Origin: an uncultured Lachnospiraceae bacterium
GTDB taxonomy: Bacteria; Bacillota; Clostridia; Lachnospirales; Lachnospiraceae
DNA: 64,000 nucleotides
Reading direction: 5' to 3'
Assembly: GCA_946539855.1 (NCBI GenBank)
Contig: CAMNHV010000009.1
Span: forward strand, 677-64,676
Shown here: piece by piece, positions 15,985-36,225 of the stretch
How the letters are laid out: every line of letters begins with the position of its first letter
How positions within the stretch are numbered: the stretch's first letter is position 1
Program-made: the position numbers and the translations under genes
Notes under the pieces: model-generated
What the model was told of the DNA's origin: nothing
Seen by the model: only the letters and a program-made list of their open reading frames with translations
Database searches by the model: none

Positions 15985-16013
15985 TTGACAGTCGCGTACA
16001 AGTGATGCATACT
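15985..16013 (+). promoter_or_regulatory. sigma-A promoter of the GntR-ABC operon
   Basis: TTGACA-17 bp-CATACT. Confidence 0.75.
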
Positions 16014-16040
16014 AAGTGTACCATCACAACTAATACACTT
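16014..16040. promoter_or_regulatory. YtrA-type operator
   Basis: AAGTGTA-N13-TACACTT inverted repeat right after the -10, matching the AGTGTA-N13-TACACT YtrA box. Confidence 0.85.
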
Positions 16041-16081
16041 GATACGCGGAAGAAACGTTTCAAAAACAGGAGAGCAACAGA

Positions 16082-16444
16082 ATGCTGATCAATTACCAGG
16101 ACAGCAGGCCGATCTATGAACAGATCGTGGACAGGTACAGACACCTGATCCTCATGGGAGCGCTCGCGCCGGATGAGCAGATGCCGTCGGTGCGGAGCCT
16201 CGCAATGGAGCTGTCGACGAACCCGAACACGGTGCAGAAGGCGTACGCGGAACTCGAGCGGCAGGGCTATCTGTACAGCGTGAAGGGAAGAGGCAGCTTC
16301 GTCTGTCACGCGGACGACCTGCGGCGCGCGAAGGTCACGGAGATCGCGGACGAGATCGCGTCTCTCTTAAGAGAGGGAGAGGAGATCGGAGCCGATCCGG
16401 AGGACATTCTTGAAAAGGCGCGCCGGAGACTGCGGGAAGGCTGA
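16082..16444 (+). CDS. GntR-family (YtrA subfamily) repressor
   Basis: PIYEQI, MPSVR.LA.EL..NPNTVQKAY.ELE..G, GRGSFV; short C-terminal domain. Confidence 0.93.
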   Translation: MLINYQDSRPIYEQIVDRYRHLILMGALAPDEQMPSVRSLAMELSTNPNTVQKAYAELERQGYLYSVKGRGSFVCHADDLRRAKVTEIADEIASLLREGEEIGADPEDILEKARRRLREG

Positions 16445-16485
16445 GCAGCGGCCCGCGAAGTACAAATCGAAAGGAATCTTTCAAC

Positions 16486-19591: not shown

Positions 19592-19595
19592 AAGA

Positions 19596-19624
19596 GAGGG
19601 AGCGATGATGTCGCTCCCTCTTTC
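19596..19624 (+). terminator. Rho-independent terminator of the GntR-ABC operon
   Basis: GAGGGAGCGA-tgatg-TCGCTCCCTC + TTT. Confidence 0.75.
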
Positions 19625-19626
19625 AA

Positions 19627-19655
19627 TTTACTTTGCGGCACAATTATCATACAAT
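19627..19655 (+). promoter_or_regulatory. Putative sigma-A promoter for lepA-hemW
   Basis: TTTACT-17 bp-TACAAT. Confidence 0.55.
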
Positions 19656-19728
19656 GACGGTTGTAGTCAGGACCCGCGGGCGGTCCGCGGCGGCGAAAAG
19701 CCGGTGACGTTAGAAAGTGAATCGACAT

Positions 19729-21552
19729 ATGACAGATACTTCGGTATTACAGAAGCATATTAGAAATTTTTGCATCGTGGCGCACATCGACCACGGCAAA
19801 TCAACGCTGGCCGACCGGATGATCGAGAAGACCGGCGTTTTGACGAGCCGTGAAATGCAGAGCCAGGTGCTGGACAACATGGATCTCGAGCGGGAGCGCG
19901 GGATCACGATCAAGTCGCAGGCGGTCCGCCTGATCTATCAGGCGAAGGACGGCCAGGAGTACATGTTCAACCTGATCGACACGCCCGGGCACGTCGACTT
20001 CAACTATGAGGTGTCCCGCTCGCTGGCGGCGTGCGACGGCGCGATCCTTGTCGTCGACGCGACGCAGGGTATCCAGGCGCAGACGCTGGCAAACGTCTAT
20101 CTTGCGCTGGACCATGACCTGGACGTTTTCCCCGTCATCAACAAGATCGACCTGCCGAGCGCGCGCCCGGACGAGGTGAAGAAGGAGATCGAGGACGTCA
20201 TCGGCCTGGAGGCGGAGGACGCGCCGCTCATCTCCGCGAAGCAGGGCATCGGCATCGAGGACGTCCTGGAGGAAGTGGTCACGAAGATCCCCGCGCCGGA
20301 CGGAGATTCCGATGCGCCGTTAAAGGCGCTGATCTTTGACTCGCTCTATGATTCTTACAAGGGCGTGATCGTCTTTGTCAGGCTCCGGGACGGGAGACTG
20401 AAGAAGGGCATGAAGGTCCGCATGTGCGCGAGCGGCGCGGAGGCGGAAGTCGTCGAGGTCGGGTATTTCGGCCCCGGACAGTTCCTTCCGTGCGACGAGC
20501 TCAGCGCGGGCATGGTCGGCTACTTCACCGCTTCCATCAAAAACATCCGCGACGCGAGAGTCGGCGACACCGTGACCGAGTCTGTGCGTCCCTGCGAAGA
20601 GGCGCTGCCCGGCTACAAGAAGGCGCAGCCGATGGTCTACTGCGGCGTGTATCCGTCCGATACCCAGCGCTACCCGGATCTCAAGGACGCACTGGAAAAG
20701 CTTCAGCTCAACGACGCCTCGCTCTTCTTCGAGCCGGAGTCGTCGCTGGCGTTAGGCTTTGGCTTCCGCTGCGGCTTCCTCGGGCTTCTGCACATGGAAG
20801 TTATCCTGGAGCGGCTCGAGCGCGAGTATGATCTCGACCTCATCGCGACGGCGCCCGGCGTCGTCTACAGGATCTTTAAGACCGACGGCACGATGATGGA
20901 ACTGACCAATCCTTCGAACCTGCCCGACGAGACCCTCATCGAGCACATGGAGGAGCCGATCGTCAGCGCGGAGATCATGGTGACGACCGAGTTCATCGGC
21001 TCCATCATGCAGCTGTGCCAGGAGCGGAGAGGAAGATACCTCGGCACCGAGTACATCGAGCAGACGCGCGCGATCCTGCGCTATGAGCTGCCGCTCGGCG
21101 AGATCATCTACGATTTCTTTGATGCGCTCAAGTCAAGATCGAAGGGCTATGCATCTTTTGACTATGAACTCAAGAATTACGAGCCCGCGAAGCTGGTGAA
21201 GCTCGACATCCTCGTCAACAAGACGCCGGTCGACGCGCTCTCGTTCATCGTGCATGCGGACGGCGCTTACGAGCGCGGCAGGAAGATGTGCGAGAAGCTG
21301 AAGGACGAGATCCCGCGCCAGCTGTTCGAGGTGCCGATCCAGGCTGCGGTCGGCGGGCGCGTCATCGCGAGAGAGACGGTCCGCGCGGTCCGCAAGGACG
21401 TCCTCGCCAAGTGCTACGGCGGCGATATCTCGCGTAAGAAGAAGCTCCTGGAGAAACAGAAGGAAGGCAAGAAGCGGATGCAGACGATCGGCAACGTCGA
21501 GATCCCGAAGGAAGCCTTCATCAACGTCCTCAAGCTGGGAGAAAACGATTGA
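19729..21552 (+). CDS. lepA: Elongation factor 4
   Basis: [78 protein letters not shown]. Confidence 0.97.
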
Positions 21553-22760
21553 AGAACTTATCCCTGTACCTGCATATTCCGTTCTGTGTGCGGAAATGCA
21601 GGTACTGTGATTTTCTGTCCGGGCCCGCGGATGAGGCGGCCCGGCAGCGATATGCCAAGGCGCTCTGTCGGGAGATTCGGGCGGCGGGGGAGTTCTGCCG
21701 GGAAAAAGAAACCGTCACGACAGTATATCTCGGAGGTGGTACCCCGTCAGTTCTTGCGCCTGTCCAGATCAGGAAGATTCTGGATACGGTGCGGGAATGC
21801 TTTTCTCTTGAGGAGAATGTCGAGATCACGATGGAGATCAATCCGGGTACAGTGACGGAAGAGGATCTGCGCAGTCTTCGTGCGGCGGGGATCAACCGGC
21901 TGTCCGTCGGGGTGCAGTCCTTCCGGGATGATGAGTTGAAGCTTCTCGGGCGGATCCACACGGCGGAGGAGGCGAAGGATGTCATGCGGGCGGCGCGCCG
22001 CGCGGGATTCTCCAACCTCAGTCTGGACCTCATCAGTGCGCTGCCGGGGCAGAAGCTCGAAGACTTCATCTTCAATCTTGAGGAGGCGGCCGCTTTGCGG
22101 CCGGAGCACATCTCGGTCTACAGCCTGATCCTCGAGGAGGGAACGCCGCTTGCGCGCATGGCGCAGGAAGGGCAGCTGCCGCCGCTTCCGGGCGACGAGC
22201 TGGACCGCGAGATGTATCACGAGACGGCGAAGATCCTCGCTCGGCATGGCTACCACCGCTACGAGATCTCCAATTACGCAATGGATGGCTTCGAGAGCCG
22301 CCACAACAGCGGCTACTGGACCGGGCGCGAATACCTCGGCCTGGGCCTCGGGGCGTCGTCGTACTTCGGCGGAGTGCGCTTCCGCGGGACGGCGTCGATG
22401 GGGGAGTATTTGGGGTATTACGGGGAGAAGGATCTCTCTTCGGTTAAAGTGGAAGGGACGGACTTTTCTTCCATCTCGCAAGAGGGCACTGTGTTTGCGG
22501 ACGCCCCTCGGGAAGAAATGGAACAGCTTTCAGAAGAAGATCGCATGGCTGAATTCATGTTCCTCGGATTGCGCATGACGCGAGGGGTCAGCGAGAACGA
22601 ATTTCTGGAGCGGTTCGGAGCATCAATGGAAGACATCTATGGCAAAGTCCTGCAGAGACATCTCGCAGCCGGCGTCATTGAGAGAACTGACGGCCGCGTA
22701 TTCCTCACAGAGCGCGGCATTGACGTGAGCAATGCGGTGATGGCGGACTATCTGTTGTGA
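21549..22760 (+). CDS. hemW: Radical SAM heme chaperone (HemN-like)
   Basis: [59 protein letters not shown]; conserved position after lepA. Confidence 0.9.
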
Positions 22761-23097
22761 TCGTGGACGGATTACCGCTATGAATACCCACTTTTGTAGA
22801 TATTCATACGCAATCATTATTCTTTAGAAATTGTATATGGACCAGTGATTTCTGAGACTTGGGGCGGGCATTGACCCGCCTCTTTGCATCTGCTATCGTT
22901 ATAAATGTTCGGATGCCTGTTCAGGCGTTCGCAATTACTTCGCTCCTTGTCAGGGTGAAGATCCAGCCTCATATCGAGGCGTTTATCAGCAAACAATTAT
23001 CTTTGAAATGTTTCATGGCCGCAGTGTCATCGGCTCCGGAACGATTGCTTTGTGCTGGGAAAGGTATGCCTTCCCAGACAGGCGGAAAGGAGCACGT

Positions 23098-24906
23098 ATG
23101 TACAGTTGTGTCACTGCGGGAGCCCTGCTCGGGCTCACTTGTTATCTGGTCCGCGTCGAGGTCGACATCGCGCCGGGCCTGCCGGTCTTTGACATTGTCG
23201 GTATGGCGGGGACGCCGGCCCGGGAGAGTCGGGAGCGCGTTCGCGTCGCGCTTCACAGTCTCGGGATCCGGATGCCGGCGAGCCGGATCACGGTCAGTTT
23301 CTCTCCGGCGGACGTTCCGAAGAGAGGATTTGTGCCGGATCTGCCGGTCGCGATCGGCATTCTCATCTGCCTCGGACAGCTGCGGCAGGAAGATCTGGAA
23401 GACACGTTGATTTCCGGGGAGCTTGGTCTCTCAGGAGAAGTCAGGACAGTCCGGCGAGGAATGATGCTTCTTGCGGAAACGGCCGCGAAAGAAGGCATTC
23501 GCACGATCATCGTGCCGGAAGAGAATACGGCGGAGGGCGCGATCGCTGCGGATGGGACGCTCACCACAGGCAGTAAGGAAGCCGCGGGAGGAACACTTCA
23601 TAGTACGATAGAAGCGCATTCAGCAGGCAAGAAAAATGAGCAGAGGCTGAAGGTCATTGGCGTTCGTAACCTGGAGGATTGCATCCGCTATTTGAAAACA
23701 GAGAAGAAAGAGCGGGATGCAGTTATTGCTCCTGCGGTAAGCCGCCTCAGGGAGAGGATCCGCGACGATATGGAGACAGGCCCTGACTTCTCAGATGTAC
23801 ATGGCCAGAGGGAGGCGAAGCGAGCGCTTGAAATCGCTGCCGCCGGATTCCATAACATCCTGATGATCGGCCCGCCCGGCGCGGGGAAGAGCATGCTTGC
23901 TTCCCGCCTTCCTGGAATTCTTCCACCGCTTTCTGAAGCAGAGAGCATGGAAGTGACCGAGATCTACAGTGCCGCAGGATTGCTGGACAGGAAAGATCCG
24001 CTGATCACGAGACGTCCATTTCTTGCGCCGCATCACACGGTCACTGGCGTAGCACTTACCGGCGGAGGGGAGTATCCCATGCCAGGCCTCATTTCTCAAG
24101 CGCACAGAGGCGTCCTTTTTCTCGATGAGCTTCCTGAATTCCGGCGAGATACGGTGAATCTTCTCCGCCAGCCGATGGAAGAGCGACAGATCCGCATCGT
24201 GCGCAGAAGCGGCACGTATACCTATCCTGCTCGTTTTCTCCTTTGCGCTGCGGCAAACCCATGTCCGTGCGGCTTCTGGCCGGACAGATCCAGGTGCCGC
24301 TGCTCCGAGAAAGACGTTGTGCGCTACCAGAACCGGATCCCCGGTCCTCTGCTCGACAGAATCGACTTGTGCATCACCCTTCGTCAGGTCGAAGTGGAAG
24401 AACTCACGGGAGGCGCCTCAGAAGAATCCAGCCGTGAGATCCGCGAGAGAGTGATGCGTGCCGTAGCACGGCAGCAGGAGCGCTTCCAGATGAGTAAGGA
24501 CTGCAGGCAAGACGAGGCTTACCTGCAGGCAGCAGAACGAAATCTGGAGGAGCTTCAATTGCTTGCTGCAGGTCAGATAGCTTCCTCAGATTCCGAACGG
24601 AACTCTGTCCCAGACACCGGAAGTGAATCTCGCCGCGAGGACACGCCATCAGGCAGAAGCAGAACACATTTCAACGGCGACATGCTGCCGGCGGAAGTAG
24701 AGAAATATTGTGCTCTGGGTAAACAGGAGAGGCTATTCGCTGAGAACTTGTTCCGCAGACTCAAGATGTCCGCGCGAGGCTTCCACCGCCTCCTGAAGGT
24801 GGCTCGTACAATTGCAGACCTTGAAGGCGAAGAGAGGATCCTCGTTCCGCATCTCGCGGAAGCTGCAGCCTACCGCTTCCGCTTCGATGCCGTAGAAATG
24901 TTGTGA
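23098..24906 (+). CDS. comM: YifB/ComM AAA+ helicase (Mg-chelatase-related) with insertions
   Basis: ESRERVR.A, GELGLSG.VR, D..DV.GQ..AKRALEIAAAG.HNILMIGPPGAGKSML, F.APHH, AHRGVLFLDELPEF, NPCPCG, GPLLDRIDL, SARG..R.LKVARTIADL; RBS GGAAAGGAG. Confidence 0.93.
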   Translation: MYSCVTAGALLGLTCYLVRVEVDIAPGLPVFDIVGMAGTPARESRERVRVALHSLGIRMPASRITVSFSPADVPKRGFVPDLPVAIGILICLGQLRQEDLEDTLISGELGLSGEVRTVRRGMMLLAETAAKEGIRTIIVPEENTAEGAIAADGTLTTGSKEAAGGTLHSTIEAHSAGKKNEQRLKVIGVRNLEDCIRYLKTEKKERDAVIAPAVSRLRERIRDDMETGPDFSDVHGQREAKRALEIAAAGFHNILMIGPPGAGKSMLASRLPGILPPLSEAESMEVTEIYSAAGLLDRKDPLITRRPFLAPHHTVTGVALTGGGEYPMPGLISQAHRGVLFLDELPEFRRDTVNLLRQPMEERQIRIVRRSGTYTYPARFLLCAAANPCPCGFWPDRSRCRCSEKDVVRYQNRIPGPLLDRIDLCITLRQVEVEELTGGASEESSREIRERVMRAVARQQERFQMSKDCRQDEAYLQAAERNLEELQLLAAGQIASSDSERNSVPDTGSESRREDTPSGRSRTHFNGDMLPAEVEKYCALGKQERLFAENLFRRLKMSARGFHRLLKVARTIADLEGEERILVPHLAEAAAYRFRFDAVEML

Positions 24907-24960
24907 ATCAAAAACAAGTTTATGTCATGAAATGATGGAACAAGAATTGGAGATGATGAG

Positions 24961-26337
24961 ATGAAAAGAGACAGCAGCCGGTACTCCGCGAGGCAGCTTC
25001 TTCTCTGGCTGAGCTATGGAGCACAGATCGGACAGGGAACGCTCCAGAGGCTCACCGGCGAAGTAACAGATGAAATAACAGAAAGCATAGCAGCATCAGA
25101 GAGTGGAGGATTCTCACAAGCATATTCAAATGAAGATGGCGACGAGACTTCCGACACAAGCCAGGAAAGCAGAGATAACGACACGCCCAAAGGTCAAGGG
25201 GCCAGGATCCCGCTGCGGGCTCTGTTCGAGATGGGTGAAGAAGAATTACAGAAAGCAGTGAGCGGAAGGTACCGAGATTTGAAAAACGCGGGCGCGGCTA
25301 CAGGCAGATTGCTGAGGGCGAGATGTCTCGATCCGCAGGGGCTGGAAGAGCAGATAATGCGGACAAAAGTGCGCTACGTCACGATCCTGGACGAGGAATA
25401 CCCGGCAAAACTCCGCGAGACCCCGGACCCGCCATACCTGCTCTACTATATCGGGTCCCTGCCGGACGAGCGGCTGCCATCCGTGGGCATGATCGGCACG
25501 CGCGCCTCGACCGTCTACGGGAGAAAGCAGGCGGAGCAGTTCGCCTCCGCGCTGGCTTTTGCGGGAGTGCAGATCATCTCGGGCATGGCACGAGGAATTG
25601 ACGGCGTCTCTGGAAGATCGGCCCTGCTCGCAGGAGGCCGTTCCTTTGCGGTGCTGGGATGCGGCCCCGACATCTGTTATCCGGAAGAAAACCGCGACCT
25701 CTACGAACAGCTTCAATCGCAGGAAGGCTCGGGCATCCTCTCGGAGTATTGCCCGGGAACGCAGCCGGTCAGCGGACTCTTTCCGCTTCGCAACAGGATC
25801 ATCAGCGGGCTATCGGACGCACTGCTCGTCGTCGAGGCGCGGGAGCGGTCCGGCACAATGATCACTGTTGAGCGGGCGCTGGACCAGAACCGGGAAGTTT
25901 ATGCACTGCCGGCCCGCGTCACGGATGCGGCATCTTCCGGCTGCCTGCAGCTCCTGCGGCAGGGCGCGATGATCGCAACGAGACCGGAAGACATCCTCGA
26001 GGACATCTTCGGAATAGCTGCAGACTTGAGAGCAGGGACGCAACGCAGGCATGAAAAAGCGACGCAGCTGGAAATGAAACAGGAAGTTCGAGGAAAAGGA
26101 GAACCAACCAGGATCACGGGTGCTCCGCTCACTCAGCTTGAGGCCGCGGTTCTGCGTTCTCTGGATGAAGGAGAGGAAAGGAGCGCGGATGACATCTATG
26201 AATCTGTGAGGAAGGCCCTTGGCTACAGCGCGGGGATCCGCGAGATCACGACAACACTGCTGATGCTCTCGATGCGGGGAATCGTCCGGGAAGAATCCCC
26301 GGGCAGGTATACGGTTGGTGGTATACTGGAGGCATGA
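24961..26337 (+). CDS. dprA: DNA-processing protein A
   Basis: YP..LRE..DPP..LY..G, GTR..T.YG, ISGMARGID, AVLGCG.D.CYP.EN, F..RNRIISGLS, VVEA.ERSG..IT...AL.Q.REV. Confidence 0.93.
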   Translation: MKRDSSRYSARQLLLWLSYGAQIGQGTLQRLTGEVTDEITESIAASESGGFSQAYSNEDGDETSDTSQESRDNDTPKGQGARIPLRALFEMGEEELQKAVSGRYRDLKNAGAATGRLLRARCLDPQGLEEQIMRTKVRYVTILDEEYPAKLRETPDPPYLLYYIGSLPDERLPSVGMIGTRASTVYGRKQAEQFASALAFAGVQIISGMARGIDGVSGRSALLAGGRSFAVLGCGPDICYPEENRDLYEQLQSQEGSGILSEYCPGTQPVSGLFPLRNRIISGLSDALLVVEARERSGTMITVERALDQNREVYALPARVTDAASSGCLQLLRQGAMIATRPEDILEDIFGIAADLRAGTQRRHEKATQLEMKQEVRGKGEPTRITGAPLTQLEAAVLRSLDEGEERSADDIYESVRKALGYSAGIREITTTLLMLSMRGIVREESPGRYTVGGILEA

Positions 26338-29060
26338 GTAAAGTATTGTCGATCCGCGTGACAGGTGCGGTGCAGGGCATCGGCTACCGCCCGTTTATCG
26401 CGCGTCTCGCTGAAAAACTAAATCTTGTCGGAGAAGTCAGGAACACCGGCGGCGTCGTCACGATTCTGGCAGCAGGCAGCGCTTCCGCCGTGGATACTTT
26501 CCTGCAGACAGTGCAGACCAAGGTGCCTGCTGGCGGACTGCTTGTGTCCGTGGACGCACGCGACGTAACAGACCGCTATGTGGCAGCTGAGGACAAAGCA
26601 GATGTCTCGAGCGTCGCAGAAGAATATGCGACAGTTGTGGGAAAAGAACCTGCCTTGGATGAAACAGAAGAGCATGCCGCAGAAGCCCTGAATGATAGAA
26701 AAGAGAGTGACGGTATTCTGCCGCTGCCCGAACACTTCCGAATTTGTGAGAGTGAAGTCGAGCAAGTTGATGATCTTCCGGTATTTCCGCCGGATATCGG
26801 GATCTGTGAAGAATGCACAGGTGAGATGGAGGATCCATCTGACAGACGACACGGATATCCGCTGATCAGCTGCGCTTCCTGTGGACCGAGATGGAGCATC
26901 CTCCGGCGGTTCCCGTATGACCGGGATACGACGGCGATGCTTCCGTATGAGATGTGTCCCACCTGCGCTGTGGAGTATACGACCGGACGACGCAGGCATG
27001 CGCAGACAATTTCCTGCCACGACTGCGGACCGCAGATGGTGCTCTACGGATTCGATGGAACACAATTCATCCGCATGAATAGTGCTTCTGAAGGAAGTGA
27101 CATCGACGAAGATCTGATGAAGGCTGCGGCGATCTTGCGGCACGGAGGAATTCTTGCTGCAAAGAGTGTCGGCGGGTATCAGCTGATGTGCCTTGCGAAC
27201 GATGCCGACGCGGCGAAGCGCCTTCGGAAGATAAAAGGCCGTGAAAAGAAGCCTTTTGCTGTGCTGTTCCATGACGTCAGTGCCGTGAAAGAGTATTGCA
27301 TCGTCAATGAGGAAGAAGAGAAACTGCTTCGTTCCTCCGCGCGGCCGATCGTGCTTCTTGAACCCGCAGTTCGCTCCGCCTTCCCCGCAGAAGTATGTGC
27401 GGAGAGCCGGAGGATTGGCGCGTTTCTTCCGTCGGCGGGGTTCCAGACATTGCTTACAGGATTGTGCGGACCGCTGATCGTCACGAGCTGCAACCTGACG
27501 GACGGACCGATCCTGACGCATAACGAGGACCTGCTCACATTCTTCCGGCAGAGCGAAGATCCGCCGGACGCAGTCTACGATCACGACAGGGAGATCCTGC
27601 GGCCGCTCGACGACTCGGTGCTGAGTGTCGTGGACGGGCAGGCGCAGATGATTCGCAGAAGCAGAGGATACGTTCCGATGCCGGTATTCGTGAAGCATGG
27701 GGCTTCTTCCGGGGCCGCGATCCTCGCGCTCGGCGGAGACCTGAAGAGCACATTCTGTCTCATGAAACGCGATCGCGCGATCCTGTCGCAGTATTACGGT
27801 GACCTCGCGGAGTATGGCGTTTACGGAAATTACACCAGTGGGATCCGCGACATGGCGGATGTCTTCGAAGTAAAGCCGGAGATCATCGTCACAGATCTTC
27901 ATCCCGGCTACCTTTCATCGGCGCACGGGAAGGAGATCGCGGAAGAACTCGCTTCAAAAGGAACTGAACAAGTAGAAGAGATCCGCGTCCAGCATCACCA
28001 CGCCCACATCGCTTCTGTGATGGCGGAGCATGGGCTGGAGTCCTGCATCGGTATTGCCTTTGACGGCACGGGATACGGGACGGACGGCCAGCTCTGGGGC
28101 GGAGAGTTCCTATATTGCAAGGGATCCGGATTCGAGAGAGAAGCATCTCTTTCCGCGATTCGTCTATGCGGCGGCGACCGCGCGGCGAAGGACGCGGAAC
28201 TCGCAGCATGCTGTCTTATCACATCATGTGAAAATGCAGTAGACACGAAGCTTGCGCCAGACAGGAATGCCTCCATCGTGGAAGGCACCGGCAAAGTATC
28301 AGGTAGCGATTCAAATTCAGGCTTTTTCCTGGCGCGGCAGAACATCTCCCCCGCCAAGGAGCAAATGGTTCGTGCAGCGCTTGCGCATAACATCAACACC
28401 GTATCTTGCACAAGCATGGGGCGTCTGTTTGACGCCGCGGCTTTCCTGCTTAGCCTTCGAGCAGAGAATTCATATGAAGGAGAGTGCGCCATCGCGCTTG
28501 AAAATGCTGCGATCCGAGCGGCGAAATCAATTCTCTTAGAAGATAATGCAAACGCTGGAGCGGACAGTGACAGGACTGAGTTTTCAGATGTTGGAGCAGC
28601 TGGGAACGAGACCGAAACCGTCAACACCGGCACTCCCAGAAACGAGTCAGATCTCATCCACGCGATCCTCGAGAGAGCGGATCTCTGGAGGCGGGTGGAA
28701 ATGCTTTTCCCGGAACTTGTGAGAGAAGAGGACGGAAGGCTCCTCCTGTCACAGGAAGTCCTCGCGCGAGGAATCATGCAGGCGATGCAGGAGGAATCAG
28801 CGGACTTCGCCGCCCTCCTGTTCCACATGGCGATCCTCGAGGGAAGCGTGCAGATCTGTAGGAAGATCCGCGCAAAGACCGGCGAAACCGCGGTTGCGCT
28901 CTCGGGCGGATCGTTCCAGAACCGGATCCTCGCAGAGGGGTGCGTCCATCTTTTACGAAACGAAGGTTTTCATGTATACTTGAACAGGCTGGTACCCCCG
29001 AACGACGGCGGAATCAGCTTGGGACAGGCTTTTATCGCAGCACAGACGCTGCGGAAATAA
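26334..29060 (+). CDS. hypF: Carbamoyltransferase HypF with three insertions
   Basis: Acylphosphatase V.G.VQGIGYRPF, two Zn fingers (CEEC/CASC, CPTC/CHDC), PYDR..T.M, RRSRGYVP, QHHHAH, DGTGYG, SMGRLFDA, VPPNDGGISLGQA. Confidence 0.95.
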   Translation: MSKVLSIRVTGAVQGIGYRPFIARLAEKLNLVGEVRNTGGVVTILAAGSASAVDTFLQTVQTKVPAGGLLVSVDARDVTDRYVAAEDKADVSSVAEEYATVVGKEPALDETEEHAAEALNDRKESDGILPLPEHFRICESEVEQVDDLPVFPPDIGICEECTGEMEDPSDRRHGYPLISCASCGPRWSILRRFPYDRDTTAMLPYEMCPTCAVEYTTGRRRHAQTISCHDCGPQMVLYGFDGTQFIRMNSASEGSDIDEDLMKAAAILRHGGILAAKSVGGYQLMCLANDADAAKRLRKIKGREKKPFAVLFHDVSAVKEYCIVNEEEEKLLRSSARPIVLLEPAVRSAFPAEVCAESRRIGAFLPSAGFQTLLTGLCGPLIVTSCNLTDGPILTHNEDLLTFFRQSEDPPDAVYDHDREILRPLDDSVLSVVDGQAQMIRRSRGYVPMPVFVKHGASSGAAILALGGDLKSTFCLMKRDRAILSQYYGDLAEYGVYGNYTSGIRDMADVFEVKPEIIVTDLHPGYLSSAHGKEIAEELASKGTEQVEEIRVQHHHAHIASVMAEHGLESCIGIAFDGTGYGTDGQLWGGEFLYCKGSGFEREASLSAIRLCGGDRAAKDAELAACCLITSCENAVDTKLAPDRNASIVEGTGKVSGSDSNSGFFLARQNISPAKEQMVRAALAHNINTVSCTSMGRLFDAAAFLLSLRAENSYEGECAIALENAAIRAAKSILLEDNANAGADSDRTEFSDVGAAGNETETVNTGTPRNESDLIHAILERADLWRRVEMLFPELVREEDGRLLLSQEVLARGIMQAMQEESADFAALLFHMAILEGSVQICRKIRAKTGETAVALSGGSFQNRILAEGCVHLLRNEGFHVYLNRLVPPNDGGISLGQAFIAAQTLRK

Positions 29061-29072
29061 GGATCCTGACAC

Positions 29073-29111
29073 GATGGGATCAGTCTGGGGCAGGCTATTG
29101 CTGCGACGCTG
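29073..29111 (+). pseudogene. Relic second copy of the hypF 3' end
   Basis: Translates D-G-I-S-L-G-Q-A-I-A-A-T-L, matching the HypF C-terminus GGISLGQAFIAAQTL; differences in the GISLGQA core are synonymous. Confidence 0.65.
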
Positions 29112-29146
29112 ACACCGCAGGATCCACATAAAAGGAGAGATTCAAT

Positions 29147-29374
29147 ATGTGCGTAGCATATCCGGGAACAGTCATAGCGGTCCGTCCGGCGGAGCATAAG
29201 GCGACTGTCGATTTTTCGGGCACGACGGTGGATGCGCTGACCGGGGTTTCCGATATCAAGGAGGGCGACCGCGTGCTGGTGCACGCCGGCTGCGTGATCC
29301 GGGTCCTGCAGGAGCAGGAGGCGGACGAGCTGACCGAGCTCTTTAAGGAACTGGAGGAGGCGATCCGGTCATGA
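29147..29374 (+). CDS. hypC: Hydrogenase maturation chaperone HypC
   Basis: MC.AYPG N-terminus with Cys2, GD.VLVHAG; RBS AAAGGAG. Confidence 0.93.
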   Translation: MCVAYPGTVIAVRPAEHKATVDFSGTTVDALTGVSDIKEGDRVLVHAGCVIRVLQEQEADELTELFKELEEAIRS

Positions 29375-30417
29375 GCGCGCTCACTCTGGAACGGATCCGC
29401 GAGGAGCTCGCCTCGTACGACGGCGCGCCCCTGAGGATCATGGAGGTGTGCGGCACACACACCGCCTCCATCGTGAAAAACGGCATCCCATCCCTCCTGT
29501 CTGACAAGATCCGTCTGATTTCCGGACCGGGCTGCCCGGTCTGCGTGACGGTCACGGCCTACATCGACAGGCTGACGGAGCTCGCGCTCACGGAGGGCAC
29601 GGCCGTCTGCGCGTTTGGCGATCTTCTGCGCGTGCGCGGAAGCAGCATGAGCCTCGCGGACGCGAAAGCGCGCGGCGGAAGAGTGCACATGGTCTACTCG
29701 CCGGCGCAGATGCTGGATCTCGCAGAGGCGGATCCGCAGAGGACGTACGTCTTTGCGGCGGTCGGCTTCGAGACGACGATTCCGGTCTACGCGATCCTTA
29801 TTCAGGAGGCGGAGCGCCGCGGAATCCGCAACGTCAAACTACTTACGTCGCTCAAGACAATGCCGCAGGTCATCGGCTGGCTCATGGACTCCGGCGCAAA
29901 GATCGACGGCTTCATCGCACCGGGCCATGTCTGCGCGGTCGCCGGCTACGAGGACTACATTACTGCCGCCGCGAAGTACGGCGTGCCTTTCGTGGTCTCG
30001 GGTTTTGAGGGACCGCAGCTGCTCGCGACGATCTACGCCCTCGTGAAGATGCAGGGCAGGGGAGAGGTCAGAAACCTTTACCCGGGCGTCGTGGAAAAGG
30101 AAGGCAGCCCCGAATCCAGACAGCTCACAGCGGAGTTTTTCGAGCCTTGCGATGCGGCATGGCGCGGCATGGGGATCATCCCCGGCTCCGGTATGCGCCT
30201 GAAAGATGAATTTGCGCAGTACGACGCAGGAAGCGAGGGCCTCACGGAGGACCGCATGGCGACCGGCTGCCAGTGCGCGCACGTGCTGACGGGCGAGATC
30301 ACGCCTGAGCAGTGTCCCCTGTTTGGAAAGGTCTGCACACCGCAGGATCCGCACGGCGCCTGCATGGTGTCGCAGGAGGGGAGCTGCTTTAATCACTTTG
30401 TGGCAAGAGGAATATAA
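29371..30417 (+). CDS. hypD: Hydrogenase maturation protein HypD
   Basis: MEVCGTH, GPGCPVCV, VGFETT.P, PGHV, C.C..VL.G...P..CPLFG..CTP..P.GACMVS.EG.C. Confidence 0.95.
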   Translation: MSALTLERIREELASYDGAPLRIMEVCGTHTASIVKNGIPSLLSDKIRLISGPGCPVCVTVTAYIDRLTELALTEGTAVCAFGDLLRVRGSSMSLADAKARGGRVHMVYSPAQMLDLAEADPQRTYVFAAVGFETTIPVYAILIQEAERRGIRNVKLLTSLKTMPQVIGWLMDSGAKIDGFIAPGHVCAVAGYEDYITAAAKYGVPFVVSGFEGPQLLATIYALVKMQGRGEVRNLYPGVVEKEGSPESRQLTAEFFEPCDAAWRGMGIIPGSGMRLKDEFAQYDAGSEGLTEDRMATGCQCAHVLTGEITPEQCPLFGKVCTPQDPHGACMVSQEGSCFNHFVARGI

Positions 30418-31433
30418 TGACAGAATCATTCATAAAAATGGCCCACGGCAGCGGCGGACAGTCCACGTCCGAACTGATCGCGGGCATCTTTGCGAAGTAT
30501 TTTCATAACGAGTATCTGGACGCGATGGGCGACGCCGCGGTCGTGCCGGGAAGCGGCAGGATCGCGATGACGACGGACAGCTTCGTCGTGACGCCGTATT
30601 TCTATCCGGGCGGCGACATCGGCAGGCTGTGCATCTGCGGCACCGTCAACGACCTTCTGATGAGCGGCGCCGTGCCGAAGTATCTGACCTTCGGCTGCAT
30701 CCTGGAAGAGGGAATGCCGACGGACGCGCTCGAAAAGATCGTGCAGTCCGCAGCGCAGACAGCGGCGGAAGCCGGGATCCAGATCGTCGCCGGCGACACC
30801 AAAGTCATCGAGAACAGCGGCCATCCGGAGGGTGGCATCATCATCAACACGGCTGGTGTCGGCTTCGTCCCGGAAGGCAGATCCGTTGGCGCAGACCAGA
30901 TCCGGGAAGGGGACGCAGTCATCATTTCCGGCACGCTCGGAGAGCATCACGCCGCGATCCTCGGCAAGCGCATGGGCCTCGAAAACACCATCCAGAGCGA
31001 CAATGCGCCGCTCGGCGAGATGACGTCCGCGCTGTTTGCGGCAGGCGTCCGCGTCCGCGCGATGCGGGACGTGACGAGAGGCGGCCTCGGTACCGTGATG
31101 CACGAGTTCGCATCCGAGTCTGGCAAGACGATCATTCTGGAAGAAAAGGCTCTTCCCGTGCGCCGCGACGTTCGCGACTTCTGCGGTATCCTCGGACTCG
31201 ACCCGCTGTATATGGGCAACGAAGGAAAGATGGCGGTGGTCGTCGATCCGGCAGACACTGAGAAGGCGCTGGAAGCGATCCGCGGCAGCCGCTACGGACA
31301 GGACGCGGCGGTCATCGGAGAAGTAGCCGCGGCGGAAAACATGCCGGAAGGCCGGCTCCTGCTCCGCACGCCGGTCGGAGGATTACGGGTGCTTGGGCCC
31401 CTTTACGGAGAGGGGTTACCACGCATCTGCTGA
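30417..31433 (+). CDS. hypE: Carbamoyl dehydratase HypE
   Basis: MAHGSGG, TTDSFVV.P.F.PGGDIGRL..CGTVNDL, GDTKV, MRD.TRGG, NEGK, C-terminal LPRIC. Confidence 0.96.
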   Translation: MTESFIKMAHGSGGQSTSELIAGIFAKYFHNEYLDAMGDAAVVPGSGRIAMTTDSFVVTPYFYPGGDIGRLCICGTVNDLLMSGAVPKYLTFGCILEEGMPTDALEKIVQSAAQTAAEAGIQIVAGDTKVIENSGHPEGGIIINTAGVGFVPEGRSVGADQIREGDAVIISGTLGEHHAAILGKRMGLENTIQSDNAPLGEMTSALFAAGVRVRAMRDVTRGGLGTVMHEFASESGKTIILEEKALPVRRDVRDFCGILGLDPLYMGNEGKMAVVVDPADTEKALEAIRGSRYGQDAAVIGEVAAAENMPEGRLLLRTPVGGLRVLGPLYGEGLPRIC

Positions 31434-31521
31434 ATAACAAGTAATGCAGGACGACAAACATCACGAGCGGAACGCGAAGCGTTCTGCGAGTGCTCAACAA
31501 TTAATTAAGGAGACCCCAACT

Positions 31522-32781
31522 ATGGCACTCATCAAAAAACCCGTCAACGGCATGAAGGACATCCTCCCCCGCGAGATGGAGATCCGGGACTACCTGATCG
31601 CCCTCATCAAGGAGACGTACGGGCAGTTCGGCTTCCAGTCGATCGAGACGCCTTGCGTCGAGAGCATTGAGAACCTGACCAGCAAGCAGGGCGGCGACAA
31701 CGAGAAGCTGATCTTCCGCATCTTAAAGCGCGGCGAGAAGCTTCGTCTGGAAGATGCGAAGAGCGACGCCGACCTCGTCGACTACGGCCTGCGCTATGAC
31801 CTGACCGTGCCGCTCGTGCGGTACTTCTCAAACCACGAAAACGAGCTGCAGATGCCCTTCAAGGCGCTGCAGATGGGTAATGTGTGGCGCGCGGACCGGC
31901 CGCAGAAGGGCAGGTACCGCCAGTTCATGCAGTGCGACATCGATATCATCGGCGAGCCCTCGAACCTCGCGGAGATCGAGCTGATCCTCGCGACGACGAC
32001 GACCCTCGGCCGCATCGGCTTCAAAGGCTTCCAGATCCGGATCAACGAGAGAAGGCTGCTGAAGGCGATGGCGTCCTACAGCGGATTCCCGGAGGAGCGC
32101 TGGGACGAAGTCTTCATCACCCTCGACAAGATGGACAAGATCGGCCTGGACGGCGTCCGCAGCGAGCTCGTCGAGAGCGGTTTCGCGGCGGAGAGCGTGG
32201 AAAAGTATGCCGCGCTGTTCGACGGCCTGAAGCAGACGGACGATCCGCTCGCCTTCCTCGAGGAAGCGCTGAAGGACGTCATCACGGACGACACGATCAC
32301 TTCCCTCCGCGAGATCATGCAGAGCGTGGAAGAAGCGAAGAGCGCGGATTTCCAGGTCGTGTTCGACCCGACGATCGTGCGCGGCATGAGCTACTACACC
32401 GGAACGATCTTCGAGATCGCGATGCCGGAGCTCGGCATCAGCTGCGGCGGAGGCGGCCGCTACGACAAGATGGTCGGGCGCTTCATCGGCAGGGACGTCC
32501 CGGCGTGCGGCTTCTCCATCGGATTTGAGAGAATCATTCTCATCCTCATGGAGAACGGCTTCGAGATCCCGGACGCGCCGAAGAAGACGGCCTACCTCGT
32601 AGAGAAGAATCTCCCGGGCGACAAGCTGACCGCCGTCATCCGCAAGGCGCAGAAGGAGCGCGCGGACGGCAGTCAGGTCCTCCTCGTCCGCATGAACAAG
32701 AACAAGAAGTTCCAGAAGCAGCAGCTCACAGAACAGGGCTACACTGCATTTGAGGAGTTCTACCACGACACGGAGATCTGA
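31522..32781 (+). CDS. hisS: Histidine--tRNA ligase
   Basis: GMKD..P, LRYDLTVPL.R, motif 2 WRADRPQKGRYRQF.QCD, RGMSYYTG, GGGRYD, motif 3 GFSIGFERI. Confidence 0.88.
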   Translation: MALIKKPVNGMKDILPREMEIRDYLIALIKETYGQFGFQSIETPCVESIENLTSKQGGDNEKLIFRILKRGEKLRLEDAKSDADLVDYGLRYDLTVPLVRYFSNHENELQMPFKALQMGNVWRADRPQKGRYRQFMQCDIDIIGEPSNLAEIELILATTTTLGRIGFKGFQIRINERRLLKAMASYSGFPEERWDEVFITLDKMDKIGLDGVRSELVESGFAAESVEKYAALFDGLKQTDDPLAFLEEALKDVITDDTITSLREIMQSVEEAKSADFQVVFDPTIVRGMSYYTGTIFEIAMPELGISCGGGGRYDKMVGRFIGRDVPACGFSIGFERIILILMENGFEIPDAPKKTAYLVEKNLPGDKLTAVIRKAQKERADGSQVLLVRMNKNKKFQKQQLTEQGYTAFEEFYHDTEI

Positions 32782-32785
32782 CAGA

Positions 32786-33550
32786 GTGACGGAGCAGGGA
32801 AAAGCATCCTTCGCCAGCCTCATGGCCGCAGACAAGCCTCATCACGAGAACATCGCGACTGACACCGGCATCCGTCTCGAGCACACAGAGGACGGCCTGA
32901 CGCTCACGGACGGAAAACTCTCCATGCGGGGAGATTTCATGAGCCTGCTTCCCAGGATCCGCCGCGGCAACCTGCACAAGGAACTGCTGGTCCGTGCGGC
33001 GGGTTGGAAGAGCATGGGCGAAGGGAAAACGGACACCCCGACACCTCTCGTGCTGGATGCCACCGCGGGGCTGGGCGAAGATTCTTTTCTCATGGCAGCT
33101 GCGGGACTGCGCGTGGAACTGTATGAGCGGGACCCGGTGATCGCACAGCTTCTTGAGGACGCGCTCGAAAGAGCGGCGGAAGACCCGGAGCTCGCGCCGG
33201 TCGTCTCGCGCATGACCCTCCACTGCGAGGACAGCATCGCGGCGATGCAAAGGATCGGCCGGATGCGGGAGGCGGGAGAAGACGCCGCATTCCCTGACGT
33301 GATCTTCCTCGACCCGATGTTCCCGGGGCGCACCAAGAGCGCCCTCGTCGGGAAGAAATTCCAGCTTCTGCAGCAGCTGGAAAAACCTTGTGACGACGAA
33401 CAGACACTTCTTTCGGCGGCGGTCCTGGCGAGGCCCCGCCGCATCGTGATCAAGCGCCCCGCGAAGGGACCGTATCTGTCCGGCAGGAAGCCGGATTTTT
33501 CACTGCCCGGAAAAGCAGTCCGCTATGACGTGATCCTGCTGCATTCCTGA
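32786..33550 (+). CDS. rsmJ: RsmJ-like class I SAM-dependent methyltransferase
   Basis: VLDATAGLGED, ER.P.IA.LL.D.L.R, DVIFLDPMFP, RRIVIKRP, G..VRYDV. Confidence 0.8.
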   Translation: MTEQGKASFASLMAADKPHHENIATDTGIRLEHTEDGLTLTDGKLSMRGDFMSLLPRIRRGNLHKELLVRAAGWKSMGEGKTDTPTPLVLDATAGLGEDSFLMAAAGLRVELYERDPVIAQLLEDALERAAEDPELAPVVSRMTLHCEDSIAAMQRIGRMREAGEDAAFPDVIFLDPMFPGRTKSALVGKKFQLLQQLEKPCDDEQTLLSAAVLARPRRIVIKRPAKGPYLSGRKPDFSLPGKAVRYDVILLHS

Positions 33551-33585
33551 CAATAGCCGCCTGATATGGAACACTGAGAATATTT

Positions 33586-33611
33586 TGCGGAATCATATGA
33601 TTCCGCATTTT
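33586..33611 (+). terminator. Terminator after rsmJ
   Basis: Perfect 22-bp palindrome TGCGGAATCATATGATTCCGCA followed by TTTT. Confidence 0.75.
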
Positions 33612-33621
33612 CGTACGCACG

Positions 33622-33678
33622 AAGTAGTTGAGCCTAACCGAGAGTTAGATTATACTATCTCTGTTAGCGTAAACTAAG
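33622..33678. promoter_or_regulatory. Three tandem (GT)TAG-N6-CTA(AC) operators, putative DtxR/MntR-type metal repressor sites
   Basis: TAGttgagcCTAAC (33625), GTTAGattataCTA (33644), GTTAGcgtaaaCTAA (33663) overlapping -35, -10 and the start region. Confidence 0.65.
33628..33656 (+). promoter_or_regulatory. sigma-A promoter of the metal-ATPase operon
   Basis: TTGAGC-17 bp-TATACT. Confidence 0.65.
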
Positions 33679-33751
33679 AATCGGCTGTGCGGGAAGCGGA
33701 CTTAAGGATCCAAACGCACGATGAAAGCCGGAAATAGAAGAGGAGGCAGAT

Positions 33752-34072
33752 ATGATTTCCTGGAAGAAACTTGGAATGTTCGCGGGCGGCGTGCTGTTCG
33801 GCACAGCGGGCATCGCGATCCTCGGGAGCGAAGACGCAAAGAAGGTCTACACACACTGCACCGCGGCGGTGCTGCGCGGCAAGGACTGCGTTGTAAAGCG
33901 CGCCGAGATCATCCGCGAGAACTGCGGCGACATCGCGGCGGACGCCGAGGACATCAATGAGAAGCGTGCGGAAGCGGCCAGGGAACGCGAGATCGCGGAC
34001 GCCAGGGCGACGCTGGAAGCTTACACGGAAGTAGACACGAAAGAAAGCACGGAAGAGGAACCCAAAGAGTGA
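33752..34072 (+). CDS. Small P1B-ATPase-associated protein (DUF6110-like)
   Basis: N-terminal Gly-rich TM (FAGGVLFGTAGI.IL.S.DAKK.Y), helical tail; GAGG RBS; overlaps the ATPase start. Confidence 0.75.
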   Translation: MISWKKLGMFAGGVLFGTAGIAILGSEDAKKVYTHCTAAVLRGKDCVVKRAEIIRENCGDIAADAEDINEKRAEAAREREIADARATLEAYTEVDTKESTEEEPKE

Positions 34073-36225
34073 AGTGCAGCATAATGCATGAGTCCGGCCG
34101 GAGAATGCGGATCCGGACGGCGCGAAGACACATGTCGATGCGGGAGGCCGACGTCCTGGAGTACTATCTCCGGGACCTCAGCTACGTCACGGACGTGACG
34201 GTGTACGACAGGGCGGGCGACGCCGTGATCCTGTACGCCCGGAGCGAGGCGACGAGAGCGGACCTCATCCGGCGTCTCGCAGAGTTCGCCTTTGACGACG
34301 AGGCGGCGGAAGCGCTCGTCCCCGAGAAGACGGGACGCGCCCTGAGCCACATGTACGAGGACCGGCTGGCCTTGAAGATCATGGGCCAGGCGTTCCGGCG
34401 CTTTTTCTTTCCCTCCGGCCTGCGCGCGGCGTGGACGGCGGGCAAGAGCCTCCGCTTCATCTGGATGGGCCTGAAGTGCCTTCGCAGATGCAGGCTGGAA
34501 GTGCCGGTCCTGGACGCGACCGCGATCACGGCCTCGATGCTGCGCCGGGACTTCGGGACCGCCTCCTCCGTCATGTTCCTTCTGGAGACGGGCGGGATCC
34601 TGGAGGAGTGGACGCACCGCAAGTCCGTCGACGACCTGGCGCGGTCCATGGCACTGCAGGTCGACCGCGTCTGGATGAAGAGCGGTGACGAAGAGATCCT
34701 CACCGATGTGAAAAACGTTATGCCCGGCGATCACATCATCGTCCGGACGTCAAATATCATTCCGCTCGACGGGAAGGTCCTCTCCGGCGAAGCCATGGTG
34801 AACCAGGCTTCCATGACCGGGGAGTCCGTGCCGGTCGAGAAGCGCCCCGGCGGCTACGTCTATGCCGGGACTGTCGTGGATGAGGGCGAGTGCATCGTCG
34901 AGGTCACGAAGGCTGCCGGCTCGGGCAAGTACGACCAGATCGTCCGCATGATCGAAGACTCGGAGAAACTGAAGTCGGAGACGGAGACAGCAGCTTTTCA
35001 CCTGGCGGATAAGCTCGTGCCCTACAGCCTGCTCGGAACGGCGGTCACATGGCTGCTCACGCGGAACGTCAACAAGGCGCTCTCCTTCCTGATGGTGGAC
35101 TTCTCCTGCGCACTCAAGCTCTCCATGCCGCTGTCGGTCCTCTCCGCGATCCGGGAAGCCGGTAAGCTCCATATGTCCGTCAAGGGCGGAAAATTCCTGG
35201 AAGCTGTCGCGGCGGCGGATACGATCGTCTTCGACAAGACGGGGACGCTCACGCACGCCACGCCGAAGGTCGTGCGGATCGAGACGTTCAGCGGCGAGGA
35301 TGAGACCGAGTGCCTGCGGATCGCGGCCTGTCTCGAAGAGCATTTTCCGCACTCGATCGCGAACGCGGTCGTGCGGGAGGCAGAGGAGAGGGGCATCTCT
35401 CACGCCGAGATGCACTCCAAGGTCGACTACGTCGTGGCGCACGGCATCGCGAGCGAGATCGACGGCTCGAAAGCCGTGATCGGCAGCTACCATTTTGTTT
35501 TCGAGGACGAGGGCTGCACCATTCCGCCTGGAGAAGAAGAGCGGCTGAATGCGCTCCCGAGCGAGTATTCGCATCTGTATCTTGCAGTCGGCGGCGTGAT
35601 GAAGGCGGTGCTGTGCATTTTCGACCCGCTGCGGGAGGAAGCCGCGGACGTCGTGGACAGGCTGCACAGGGCAGGGCTCTCCAGGATCTGCATGATGACC
35701 GGGGACAACGAGAGGACGGCGGCAGCAGTTGCGGCAAAGCTGCATCTGGACGAGTACCGCGCCGGCGTGCTCCCGGAGGACAAGGCGGCATTTATCCGCG
35801 CGGAGCATGCGGCCGGAAGGAAGGTCATCATGGTGGGCGACGGCGTGAACGACACCCCGGCGCTCTCGGAAGCGGACGTCGGCATCGCGGTCTCGGACGG
35901 GGCGGCGATCGCCAGGGAGATCGCGGACATCACGATCTCTGCGGAAGACCTTTACTGCCTGGTGACGCTGCGCGAGATCAGCAGCGCGCTGATGCAGCGG
36001 ATCAGGAGCAATTACAGATTCATCATCGCGTTCAACGCGGCATTGATCGCGCTCGGCGCGTTCGGCATTCTACCGCCGGCATCGTCGGCGCTCCTGCACA
36101 ACGGCTCCACGATCCTGACGGGCCTGCGCAGCATGACGGACCTTCTGCCGGACAAAGCGGCGGTGAACACAGGACGCCTGATTCCACAGAAGACGGAGTC
36201 GGAGCTCGAAGCGGTTCCCGCGTGA
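34069..36225 (+). CDS. Heavy-metal-translocating P1B-type ATPase (SCA-motif type)
   Basis: TGES, DKTGTLT, HP-like EEHFPH, MTGDN, GDGVND.PAL; TM motif DFSCALK instead of CPC/SPC; N-terminal HMA2-like MKCSIMHE..RR.R. Confidence 0.92.
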   Translation: MKCSIMHESGRRMRIRTARRHMSMREADVLEYYLRDLSYVTDVTVYDRAGDAVILYARSEATRADLIRRLAEFAFDDEAAEALVPEKTGRALSHMYEDRLALKIMGQAFRRFFFPSGLRAAWTAGKSLRFIWMGLKCLRRCRLEVPVLDATAITASMLRRDFGTASSVMFLLETGGILEEWTHRKSVDDLARSMALQVDRVWMKSGDEEILTDVKNVMPGDHIIVRTSNIIPLDGKVLSGEAMVNQASMTGESVPVEKRPGGYVYAGTVVDEGECIVEVTKAAGSGKYDQIVRMIEDSEKLKSETETAAFHLADKLVPYSLLGTAVTWLLTRNVNKALSFLMVDFSCALKLSMPLSVLSAIREAGKLHMSVKGGKFLEAVAAADTIVFDKTGTLTHATPKVVRIETFSGEDETECLRIAACLEEHFPHSIANAVVREAEERGISHAEMHSKVDYVVAHGIASEIDGSKAVIGSYHFVFEDEGCTIPPGEEERLNALPSEYSHLYLAVGGVMKAVLCIFDPLREEAADVVDRLHRAGLSRICMMTGDNERTAAAVAAKLHLDEYRAGVLPEDKAAFIRAEHAAGRKVIMVGDGVNDTPALSEADVGIAVSDGAAIAREIADITISAEDLYCLVTLREISSALMQRIRSNYRFIIAFNAALIALGAFGILPPASSALLHNGSTILTGLRSMTDLLPDKAAVNTGRLIPQKTESELEAVPA

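Follow-up and report, generated by a model that had tools for sequence, protein, structure and literature searches.

A probable lost ech operon behind the abutment of comM-dprA and hypFCDE in a Lachnospiraceae genome

What brings two genes of natural transformation into direct contact with the maturation genes of a [NiFe] hydrogenase, and does the contact mean anything for their expression? The question is raised by a 64,000-nucleotide stretch (the window) of contig CAMNHV010000009.1 (C9) in assembly GCA_946539855.1 of an uncultured Lachnospiraceae bacterium, in which comM and dprA run into hypF, hypC, hypD and hypE. The assembly (G000) comprises 2.21 Mb on 94 contigs, is 94.5% complete and has 59% GC. 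All genes between 19.7 and 33.6 kb lie on the + strand and form a co-directional string, lepA-hemW-comM-dprA-hypF-hypC-hypD-hypE-hisS-methyltransferase. A first-pass annotation had proposed that a rearranged or imported block links competence-type expression to synthesis of the Fe(CN)2CO cofactor, or that the two gene sets share a transcript by accident. The last of these is closest to the account we favour: an ech hydrogenase operon was probably lost from between dprA and hypF, hypFCDE was retained and hypF gained a promoter of its own, the abutment being a by-product of ech loss in an inherited neighbourhood and neither an import nor a designed link. We put this account at a probability of about 0.7.

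The names comM, dprA, hypF, hypC, hypD and hypE hold up, as Pfam and NCBIfam agree on them and all six proteins score above the curated cut-offs (Table 1). The dprA stop and the hypF start overlap as ATGA at 26334-26337, as first described, and the join is not an assembly artefact, since a DNA contig of another strain (sequencing run X1; 115 differences in 4081 nucleotides (nt), about 97% identical) runs gapless over 22500-26580 and crosses it. A sister metagenome contig, L077, matches G000 in the comM-dprA-hypF order and in the ATGA overlap, at identities of 78% for ComM, 74% for DprA and 70% for HypF. Its left flank is unlike the window: the comM match begins only at residue 39, and upstream of comM (L077:1-500) stand an AT-rich small open reading frame (ORF) and a strong terminator instead of hemW. 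The earlier description of hypC, hypD and hypE as following with overlaps holds for hypC/hypD (ATGA, 29371-29374) and for hypD/hypE (1 nt; TAATG, 30415-30419) and fails for hypF/hypC, which are separated by an 86-nt spacer containing AAAGGAGAG. Stop-start overlaps of the ATGA kind with translational coupling are known in bacterial operons, and the junctions at dprA/hypF and hypC/hypD share the 4-nt ATGA with them; the dprA/hypF junction differs in that a predicted promoter stands at leaderless spacing within the last codons of the upstream gene.

Neither yraN nor topA occurs at this locus, an absence already noted against the rnhB-yraN-comM-dprA-topA arrangement usual in Firmicutes. We located both outside the window, with rnhB-yraN together on contig C10, behind rbgA-lepB, and topA-codY-rpsB-tsf on contig C2, topA standing behind a radical S-adenosylmethionine (SAM) gene. 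Genomes from 24 further families of the order were surveyed; 22 contain both dprA and topA, and in 21 of these topA comes directly after dprA. Within the family, 120 other genera were covered, 116 of them with both genes, and the adjacency occurs in about 100 (counted by eye from coordinate tables); in same-genus genomes it occurs in 0 of 35. The genus layout is instead lepA-hemW-(GH25 lysozyme)-comM-dprA-variable slot-hypFCDE-hisS: in this genus comM-dprA has left its usual site before topA and is now found upstream of the hydrogenase module. As in the canonical string, the two genes belong to the same families and are adjacent and co-directional, and both outer halves of that string exist in G000; the difference is that comM-dprA is detached from both halves and stands between lepA-hemW and hypF, genus-wide. 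The block was thus rightly called rearranged, although the move is old and common to the whole genus, and an arrangement ancestral in the clade, which the first-pass annotation had named as speaking against its proposal, is what the synteny survey finds for the neighbourhood. In relatives, a GH25 lysozyme gene with choline-binding repeats lies between hemW and comM. In G000 we found none in the 337-nt spacer between these genes (22760-23098) and no homologue anywhere else, which makes a further loss at this locus of a small genome (2.2 Mb).

The variable part of the layout is the slot between dprA and hypF. Twenty-two genomes of the genus have a HypF 52-58% identical to that of G000, and we fetched 20 of them and mapped the locus by tblastn. 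In five of the 20, dprA lies directly before hypF, with spacers of 110 nt (G007), 41 nt (G014), about 206 nt (G031), 281 nt (G076) and 13 nt (G084). Two carry unrelated cargo in the slot, namely a GNAT acetyltransferase cluster (G020) and oadB (G092). Four (G006, G087, G075 and G061) have ech genes, identified with Pfam, between dprA and hypF on one contig. This ech operon has five to six genes for an Ech-type group-4 [NiFe] hydrogenase, including NuoL-, NuoH- and NuoB-like proteins, a large subunit and a 2x[4Fe-4S] protein. In nine more, ech lies directly upstream of hypF and comM-dprA ends another contig, which in three of these nine (G106, G108 and G025) continues after dprA via an unknown 750-amino-acid (aa) gene into echA-echB. 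Thirteen of the 20 fetched relatives in total therefore have ech directly before hypF. An Ech large subunit within about 5 kb downstream of dprA, on the same contig and strand, also occurs in G018 (fetched) and in G083, G074 and G095 (by coordinates), all four of which encode a HypF of a second, more distant type elsewhere. In G000 we found no Ech orthologue; the best large-subunit match is 39% identical. Of the two HypF types of the genus, the dprA/hisS-linked type is 52-58% identical to that of G000 in the best segment and 47-52% over the full length, and the second type, located elsewhere, is 37-42% identical in the best segment and about 36% over the full length. In G018, ech-hypC follows dprA and the second-type HypF is on another contig.

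Outside the genus, ech genes lie directly upstream of hypFCDE in 25 of 35 named Clostridia loci, including those of Caproiciproducens, Eisenbergiella, Butyrivibrio, Lacrimispora and Acetivibrio. Among metagenome loci, ech is upstream of hypF in 20 of 35 (directly in 19, about 6.5 kb off in one). The ech-hypFCDE module is thus widespread in Clostridia, and comM-dprA lies within 4 kb upstream in only one of the 35 named loci, possibly the same genome as G092 and for that reason counted once. A cluster of this kind has been published for Clostridium thermocellum (Clo1313_0564-0570 and following genes; PMC4676874). This and the other Clostridia ech-hyp clusters share with the window the order hypF-hypC-hypD-hypE, found behind echA-F in relatives; G000 differs from them in having no ech, in having hypA and hypB elsewhere, and in that the likely client, an Mbh-like hydrogenase, is encoded on another contig. 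Because ech before hypFCDE is the rule outside the genus, parsimony leads us to take ech-hypFCDE for the older unit; a slot without ech is then probably derived. In the lineage of G000, the ech operon would have been deleted from between dprA and hypF, and the leftover spacer, still 13-281 nt long in five relatives, would have shrunk until the dprA stop overlapped the hypF start.

If ech was lost, what would the retained Hyp proteins serve? The assembly has a single [NiFe] hydrogenase, encoded by an Mbh/Mrp-type group-4 cluster at C21:22002-30890 (L037:10003-18890). The cluster begins with the large subunit, has hypA embedded, and contains MnhE/G/B-like, MbhD-like and NuoK/L/H/B/C-like genes and a 2x[4Fe-4S] ferredoxin-like gene. 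The large subunit, 39% identical to EchE, keeps the nickel-binding motifs RVCGICSHSH and DPCFSCLDC, and the cluster has what defines group 4 membrane-bound [NiFe] hydrogenases (RxCGxCxxxH, DPCxxC, and NuoB/H/L-like plus Mrp-like subunits). A search of G000 for the HycI protease found none, which fits a large subunit that ends at the DPCxxC motif. All eight genomes whose slot lacks ech have an Mbh-like large subunit; of the 13 whose slot contains ech, none has one. The remaining hydrogenase would still need the Fe(CN)2CO cofactor, and hypFCDE would have been kept for it. The two copies each of hypA and hypB lie outside the hypFCDE locus. One pair is in an unusual setting for nickel-insertion genes: at C68:1172-6206 (L038), a 981-aa NAD(P)H/FAD iron-sulphur oxidoreductase is flanked by hypB and hypA, followed by an aldo/keto reductase with a ferredoxin domain. 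The second hypB is on C31.

With the operon, hypF would have lost the ech promoter, and we consider it somewhat probable that the gene then gained a promoter of its own, here embedded in dprA. The candidate is an extended -10-like motif, TGGTATACT, which ends 6 nt before the hypF ATG. TGNTATAMT has two matches in the 64-kb window against 0.36 expected, and the other copy occupies a promoter position between genes. Across the genome, TGNTANAMT lies 6 nt before the ATG of a long ORF in nine cases and 7 nt before it in eight, and every other distance from 0 to 79 nt has at most five cases, about 1-2 on average. In 11 of these 17, the ATG is the very start of the open frame and lacks a Shine-Dalgarno sequence; when only first-ATG starts are counted, there are eight cases at 6 nt, five at 7 nt and at most three elsewhere. 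Leaderless messenger RNAs, best known from Actinobacteria, Deinococcus and archaea, start at the AUG from a -10 element a few bases upstream. G000 apparently has a class of such messages, predicted for about 17 genes, with a geometry that hypF shares: TGnTAnnnT 6-7 nt before the ATG and no usable Shine-Dalgarno sequence. The likeness has its limits, as the class is known here from sequence prediction and the hypF promoter would lie inside the coding sequence of another gene. Examples of the leaderless type elsewhere in G000 are at C2:66622, C26:2984, C27:21909, C48:7405 and C50:3562.

Comparison with other hypF loci is consistent with this candidate. In L077 the motif TGGTATACT is unchanged and a Shine-Dalgarno-like GGAGG reads GGAAAC; in G000 that GGAGG is only 1 nt from the hypF ATG, too close to serve. 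Such a motif occurs 6-8 nt upstream in four of 75 other hypF starts (G084, G014, G020 and L077). All four loci lack ech before hypF, and none of the loci with echF upstream has the motif; in the three ech-less relatives among the four, the spacing is 7-8 nt. A two-hexamer promoter scan found nothing inside dprA, the scan being blind to promoters of an extended -10 alone. From a promoter at TGGTATACT, a message covering hypF, hypCDE and hisS would begin at the AUG or beside it. Transcription reading through from the comM promoter may contribute as well, and is plausible given the promoter-like site before comM and the lack of a terminator-like site at the dprA/hypF junction in our scan. Four other + strand terminator hits (23120, 25531, 27406 and 30478) lie inside comM, dprA, hypF and hypE and have weaker T-tails. 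The promoter-like site near the 3' end of hypF falls in a stretch (28933-29007) whose identity to L077, at 93-95%, is above the mean of 80%.

The far end of the string also bears on how it is transcribed. In all relatives examined, hypE is followed directly by hisS. No second histidyl-tRNA synthetase was found in the assembly, the sole other homologue being hisZ beside hisG-hisD on C62. Our scans found no T-box, promoter or terminator in the hypE-hisS interval, and Rfam over 16000-36000 returned only a chance sub-threshold rpfG match (26 vs 76 bits), with no T-box before hisS. Since the essential hisS begins 10 nt after hypE with no T-box or terminator between them, hypCDE transcription must be steady enough to provide for this enzyme, and the presence of hisS on the same string argues for constitutive rather than competence-type transcription. 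The proposed link between competence-type expression and Fe(CN)2CO synthesis is not borne out, and the predicted hypF promoter at the end of dprA weakens it. The transformation role of ComM is itself a prediction from sequence; comEC and one T2SSE ATPase gene are present in the genome.

Is the block foreign? It had been said to look lower in GC and richer in A/T-ending codons than its surroundings, and computation shows the dip to be real: the GC content at third codon positions (GC3) is 0.62 in comM, 0.65 in dprA and 0.62 in hypF, against 0.845 in lepA, 0.73 in hemW, 0.76/0.80/0.78 in hypC/D/E and 0.87 in hisS. Over 1235 gene-like ORFs of at least 250 aa, the genome-wide mean is 0.804 (standard deviation 0.083), and 58 ORFs (4.7%) do not exceed 0.62 and 77 (6.2%) do not exceed 0.655. 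The shift is confined to third positions, with first and second positions (GC1, GC2) normal or high in comM-dprA-hypF. Over nine genes of the string, GC3 tracks protein conservation (Spearman 0.92, n = 9); the genes rank alike in relatives, at smaller amplitude (a dip of 0.1 or less vs about 0.2 in G000). All three low-GC3 proteins have lineage-specific hydrophilic linker inserts, among them two in ComM (residues 150-180 and 468-522) and four in HypF (88-124, 639-661, 738-756 and 780-790). Together, GC3, conservation and inserts point to weakly constrained rather than foreign genes. In the X1 strain, 18 other letters replace 114 nt at window 26580-26695 (HypF residues about 83-121), an indel polymorphism within the lineage-specific insert that links the acylphosphatase domain to the zinc fingers. 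Two other gene runs of the genome, C1:71500-94700 and C22:23800-30400, are low in GC at all codon positions (GC3 0.39-0.60, GC1 about 0.5) and, in contrast to comM-dprA-hypF, resemble truly foreign islands.

Protein identities likewise fit descent within the genus. G000 is on average 51% identical to its same-genus orthologues in ComM, 41% in DprA and 49% in HypF, and deep lineages of the genus differ among themselves to a similar degree (ComM 51-58%, DprA 38-49%, HypF 48-54%). In the identity matrices G000 is no outlier, and its genes occupy the same syntenic place as those of relatives. An imported block, as first suggested, does not stand against identities within the range of deep genus lineages at the same site. 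We rejected import from outside the genus, where identity to named homologues reaches 45% at most.

Several observations weigh against parts of our account. In G014 and G020 the motif is spaced 8 nt from hypF, outside the 6-7 nt peak, and the ech-less G007, G031, G076 and G092 have no such motif before hypF. No -35 element accompanies TGGTATACT, which is part of a coding sequence and could be conserved for the C-terminal Gly-Ile-Leu of DprA. RNA contigs from three metatranscriptome runs touch comM, dprA, hypF and hypD/E, and none bridges or starts at 26334, these being short contigs rather than reads, at a depth of 2-5 and with DNA carry-over possible. A HypF tree (quick method, 23 rows) leaves the deep branches and G000 open, with the ech-less genomes scattered rather than in one clade, and we infer the direction of change, ech lost and not inserted, from distribution and parsimony. 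The GC3 dip is about twice as deep in G000 as in relatives, and other competence genes have none (comEC 0.81, T2SSE ATPase 0.88); weak constraint only partly explains the dip. The same two values weaken low expression as a general cause of low GC3.

How else might the junction be explained? Were hypF made only from the comM-dprA transcript, by ribosomes restarting at the overlapping ATG, HypF supply would follow comM-dprA expression. Conservation of the overlap in a sister lineage whose proteins differ by 22-30% would fit this, as would the missing terminator-like site at the junction, a GGAGG too close to the ATG (1 nt) for normal initiation, and a final 100 nt of dprA that is 92-95% identical to L077, where the mean is 80%. 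The extended -10 at leaderless spacing in those same 100 nt explains the same conservation, however, and the overlap is dispensable, given the spacers of 13-281 nt in relatives; the RNA fold of 26265-26375, around the junction, is no better than shuffles (z = -0.08). Exclusive coupling is therefore unlikely in our view. Coupling as the first-pass annotation had it retains the ATGA overlap in its favour and has the independent promoter predicted at TGGTATACT against it, an internal dprA promoter driving hypF being just what that annotation had named as contrary evidence, found here as a sequence prediction. It is possible and not required, and is not the best reading of hypF expression. A selected regulatory link, in which transformation and [NiFe] cofactor genes are kept as one unit for joint expression, could draw on comM-dprA standing beside the hydrogenase module over much of the genus and on the age of the fused junction. 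Slot content nevertheless varies by species (ech, ech with the unknown 750-aa gene, the GNAT cluster, oadB or nothing), hypF lies elsewhere in genus members with the second HypF type, the essential hisS on the same string favours constitutive transcription, and we found no publication that names both 'dprA' and 'hypF'; we give such a link hardly any chance. It is also very improbable that selection keeps the dprA-hypF fusion so that comM-dprA-hypF works as a single unit of expression, coupling the recombination functions of DNA uptake to [NiFe] cofactor synthesis, for instance when energy is limiting, a proposal that would follow from the conservation of the ATGA overlap across that protein divergence. 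In that event TGGTATACT would double as DprA C-terminal codons and hypF promoter.

Two further explanations concern the history of the slot. A low-GC3 comM-dprA-hypF block may have been recombined in, from outside the clade or from a lower-GC3 ech-less species of the same genus, so that one event removed ech and lowered GC3. In its favour, three genes in a row rank among the lowest 5-6% of the genome by GC3, the limits of the dip lie close to gene borders to either side of the deletion point, GC3 is normal in other competence genes, and in relatives these genes have a lower GC3 (0.44-0.77). We think this rather unlikely: GC1 and GC2 are normal or high, unlike in the clearly foreign islands of G000, no closer homologue exists outside the genus among the named loci, position and identity fit vertical descent, GC3 follows conservation here and, with the same rank order, more weakly in relatives, and the X1 strain differs evenly, by 2.8% in the block and 2.2% in the flank. 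Alternatively, the slot was empty to begin with, and other species acquired ech, together with its neighbour gene, by insertion between dprA and hypF. The scatter of ech-less genomes over the HypF tree and the other cargo that the slot takes would agree with insertion. Against this, ech directly upstream of hypFCDE is common across Clostridia outside the genus, in the named and the metagenome loci alike, and loss is more parsimonious than repeated insertion at one place and in one orientation; we hold an ancestral empty slot to be decidedly improbable. Loss of ech, with retention of hypFCDE and a predicted promoter for hypF, remains the reading that we prefer.

Table 1. Genes and predicted signals of the co-directional string (bit scores of the six comM-to-hypE proteins are given against the curated cut-off).
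Feature	Position	Strand	Basis and remarks
lepA	19717..21552	+	Pfam GTP_EFTU + LepA_C; conserved left flank; 81-90% identity at same place in relatives
hemW (radical SAM heme chaperone)	21549..22760	+	NCBIfam TIGR00539, 313 vs 205 bits
Sigma-70-like promoter candidate upstream of comM (TTGACC-17-TATCGT with TG)	22871..22899	+	Consensus scan only
comM (YifB/ComM AAA+ ATPase, 602 aa)	23098..24906	+	Pfam ChlI + Mg_chelatase + Mg_chelatase_C, all three domains matched (PF13541, PF01078, PF13335); TIGR00368, 475.4 vs 362.4 bits
dprA (458 aa)	24961..26337	+	PF02481 Rossmann-like domain, E = 6.8e-70; TIGR00732, 237.3 vs 191.15 bits
Extended -10-like motif TGGTATACT in last dprA codons, candidate leaderless hypF promoter	26319..26327	+	Motif search
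hypF (carbamoyltransferase, 908 aa)	26334..29060	+	Pfam domains: PF00708 acylphosphatase, PF07503 zf-HYPF (2 stretches), PF01300 Sua5/YrdC, PF17788 + PF22521, Kae1-like domain present; TIGR00143, 597.6 vs 466.1 bits
Promoter-like site in hypF 3' end, upstream of hypC (TTTACG-17-TATACT)	28952..28980	+	Consensus scan
hypC	29147..29374	+	PF01455; TIGR00074, 49.5 vs 48 bits
hypD	29371..30417	+	PF01924; TIGR00075, 347.6 vs 192.8 bits
hypE	30417..31433	+	AIRS + AIRS_C; TIGR02124, 392.4 vs 251.6 bits
hisS	31444..32781	+	TIGR00442, 311 vs 287 bits; 10 nt after hypE
SAM-dependent methyltransferase, last gene of co-directional string	32750..33550	+	Pfam PF04445
Two terminator-like hairpins, after methyltransferase gene	33478-33496 and 33586-33607	+	Among best-scoring + strand sites in scan

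Some features at the edges of the string deserve mention. The comM start at 23098 is preceded by GGAAAGGAG. The first 22 residues of hisS are unique to G000, and the true start may lie further downstream. Upstream of lepA, at window 17342-19591, is a 749-aa ORF that belongs to no family (a sub-threshold DUF6449 match only); at least nine relatives have a 27-31% identical counterpart, located between dprA and echA.

The locus carries a caution for the reading of gene junctions, in that a stop-start overlap between genes of unrelated functions, together with a compositional dip, mimicked an imported or purpose-built operon. Comparison with relatives suggests that an operon was instead lost from an inherited neighbourhood and that the junction is the scar left behind. 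The novelty is modest and twofold: in a genus of gut Clostridia, comM-dprA has been relocated genus-wide beside a hydrogenase island, and hypF, an accessory gene orphaned there, may be transcribed from a predicted leaderless-type promoter in the last codons of its new upstream neighbour.

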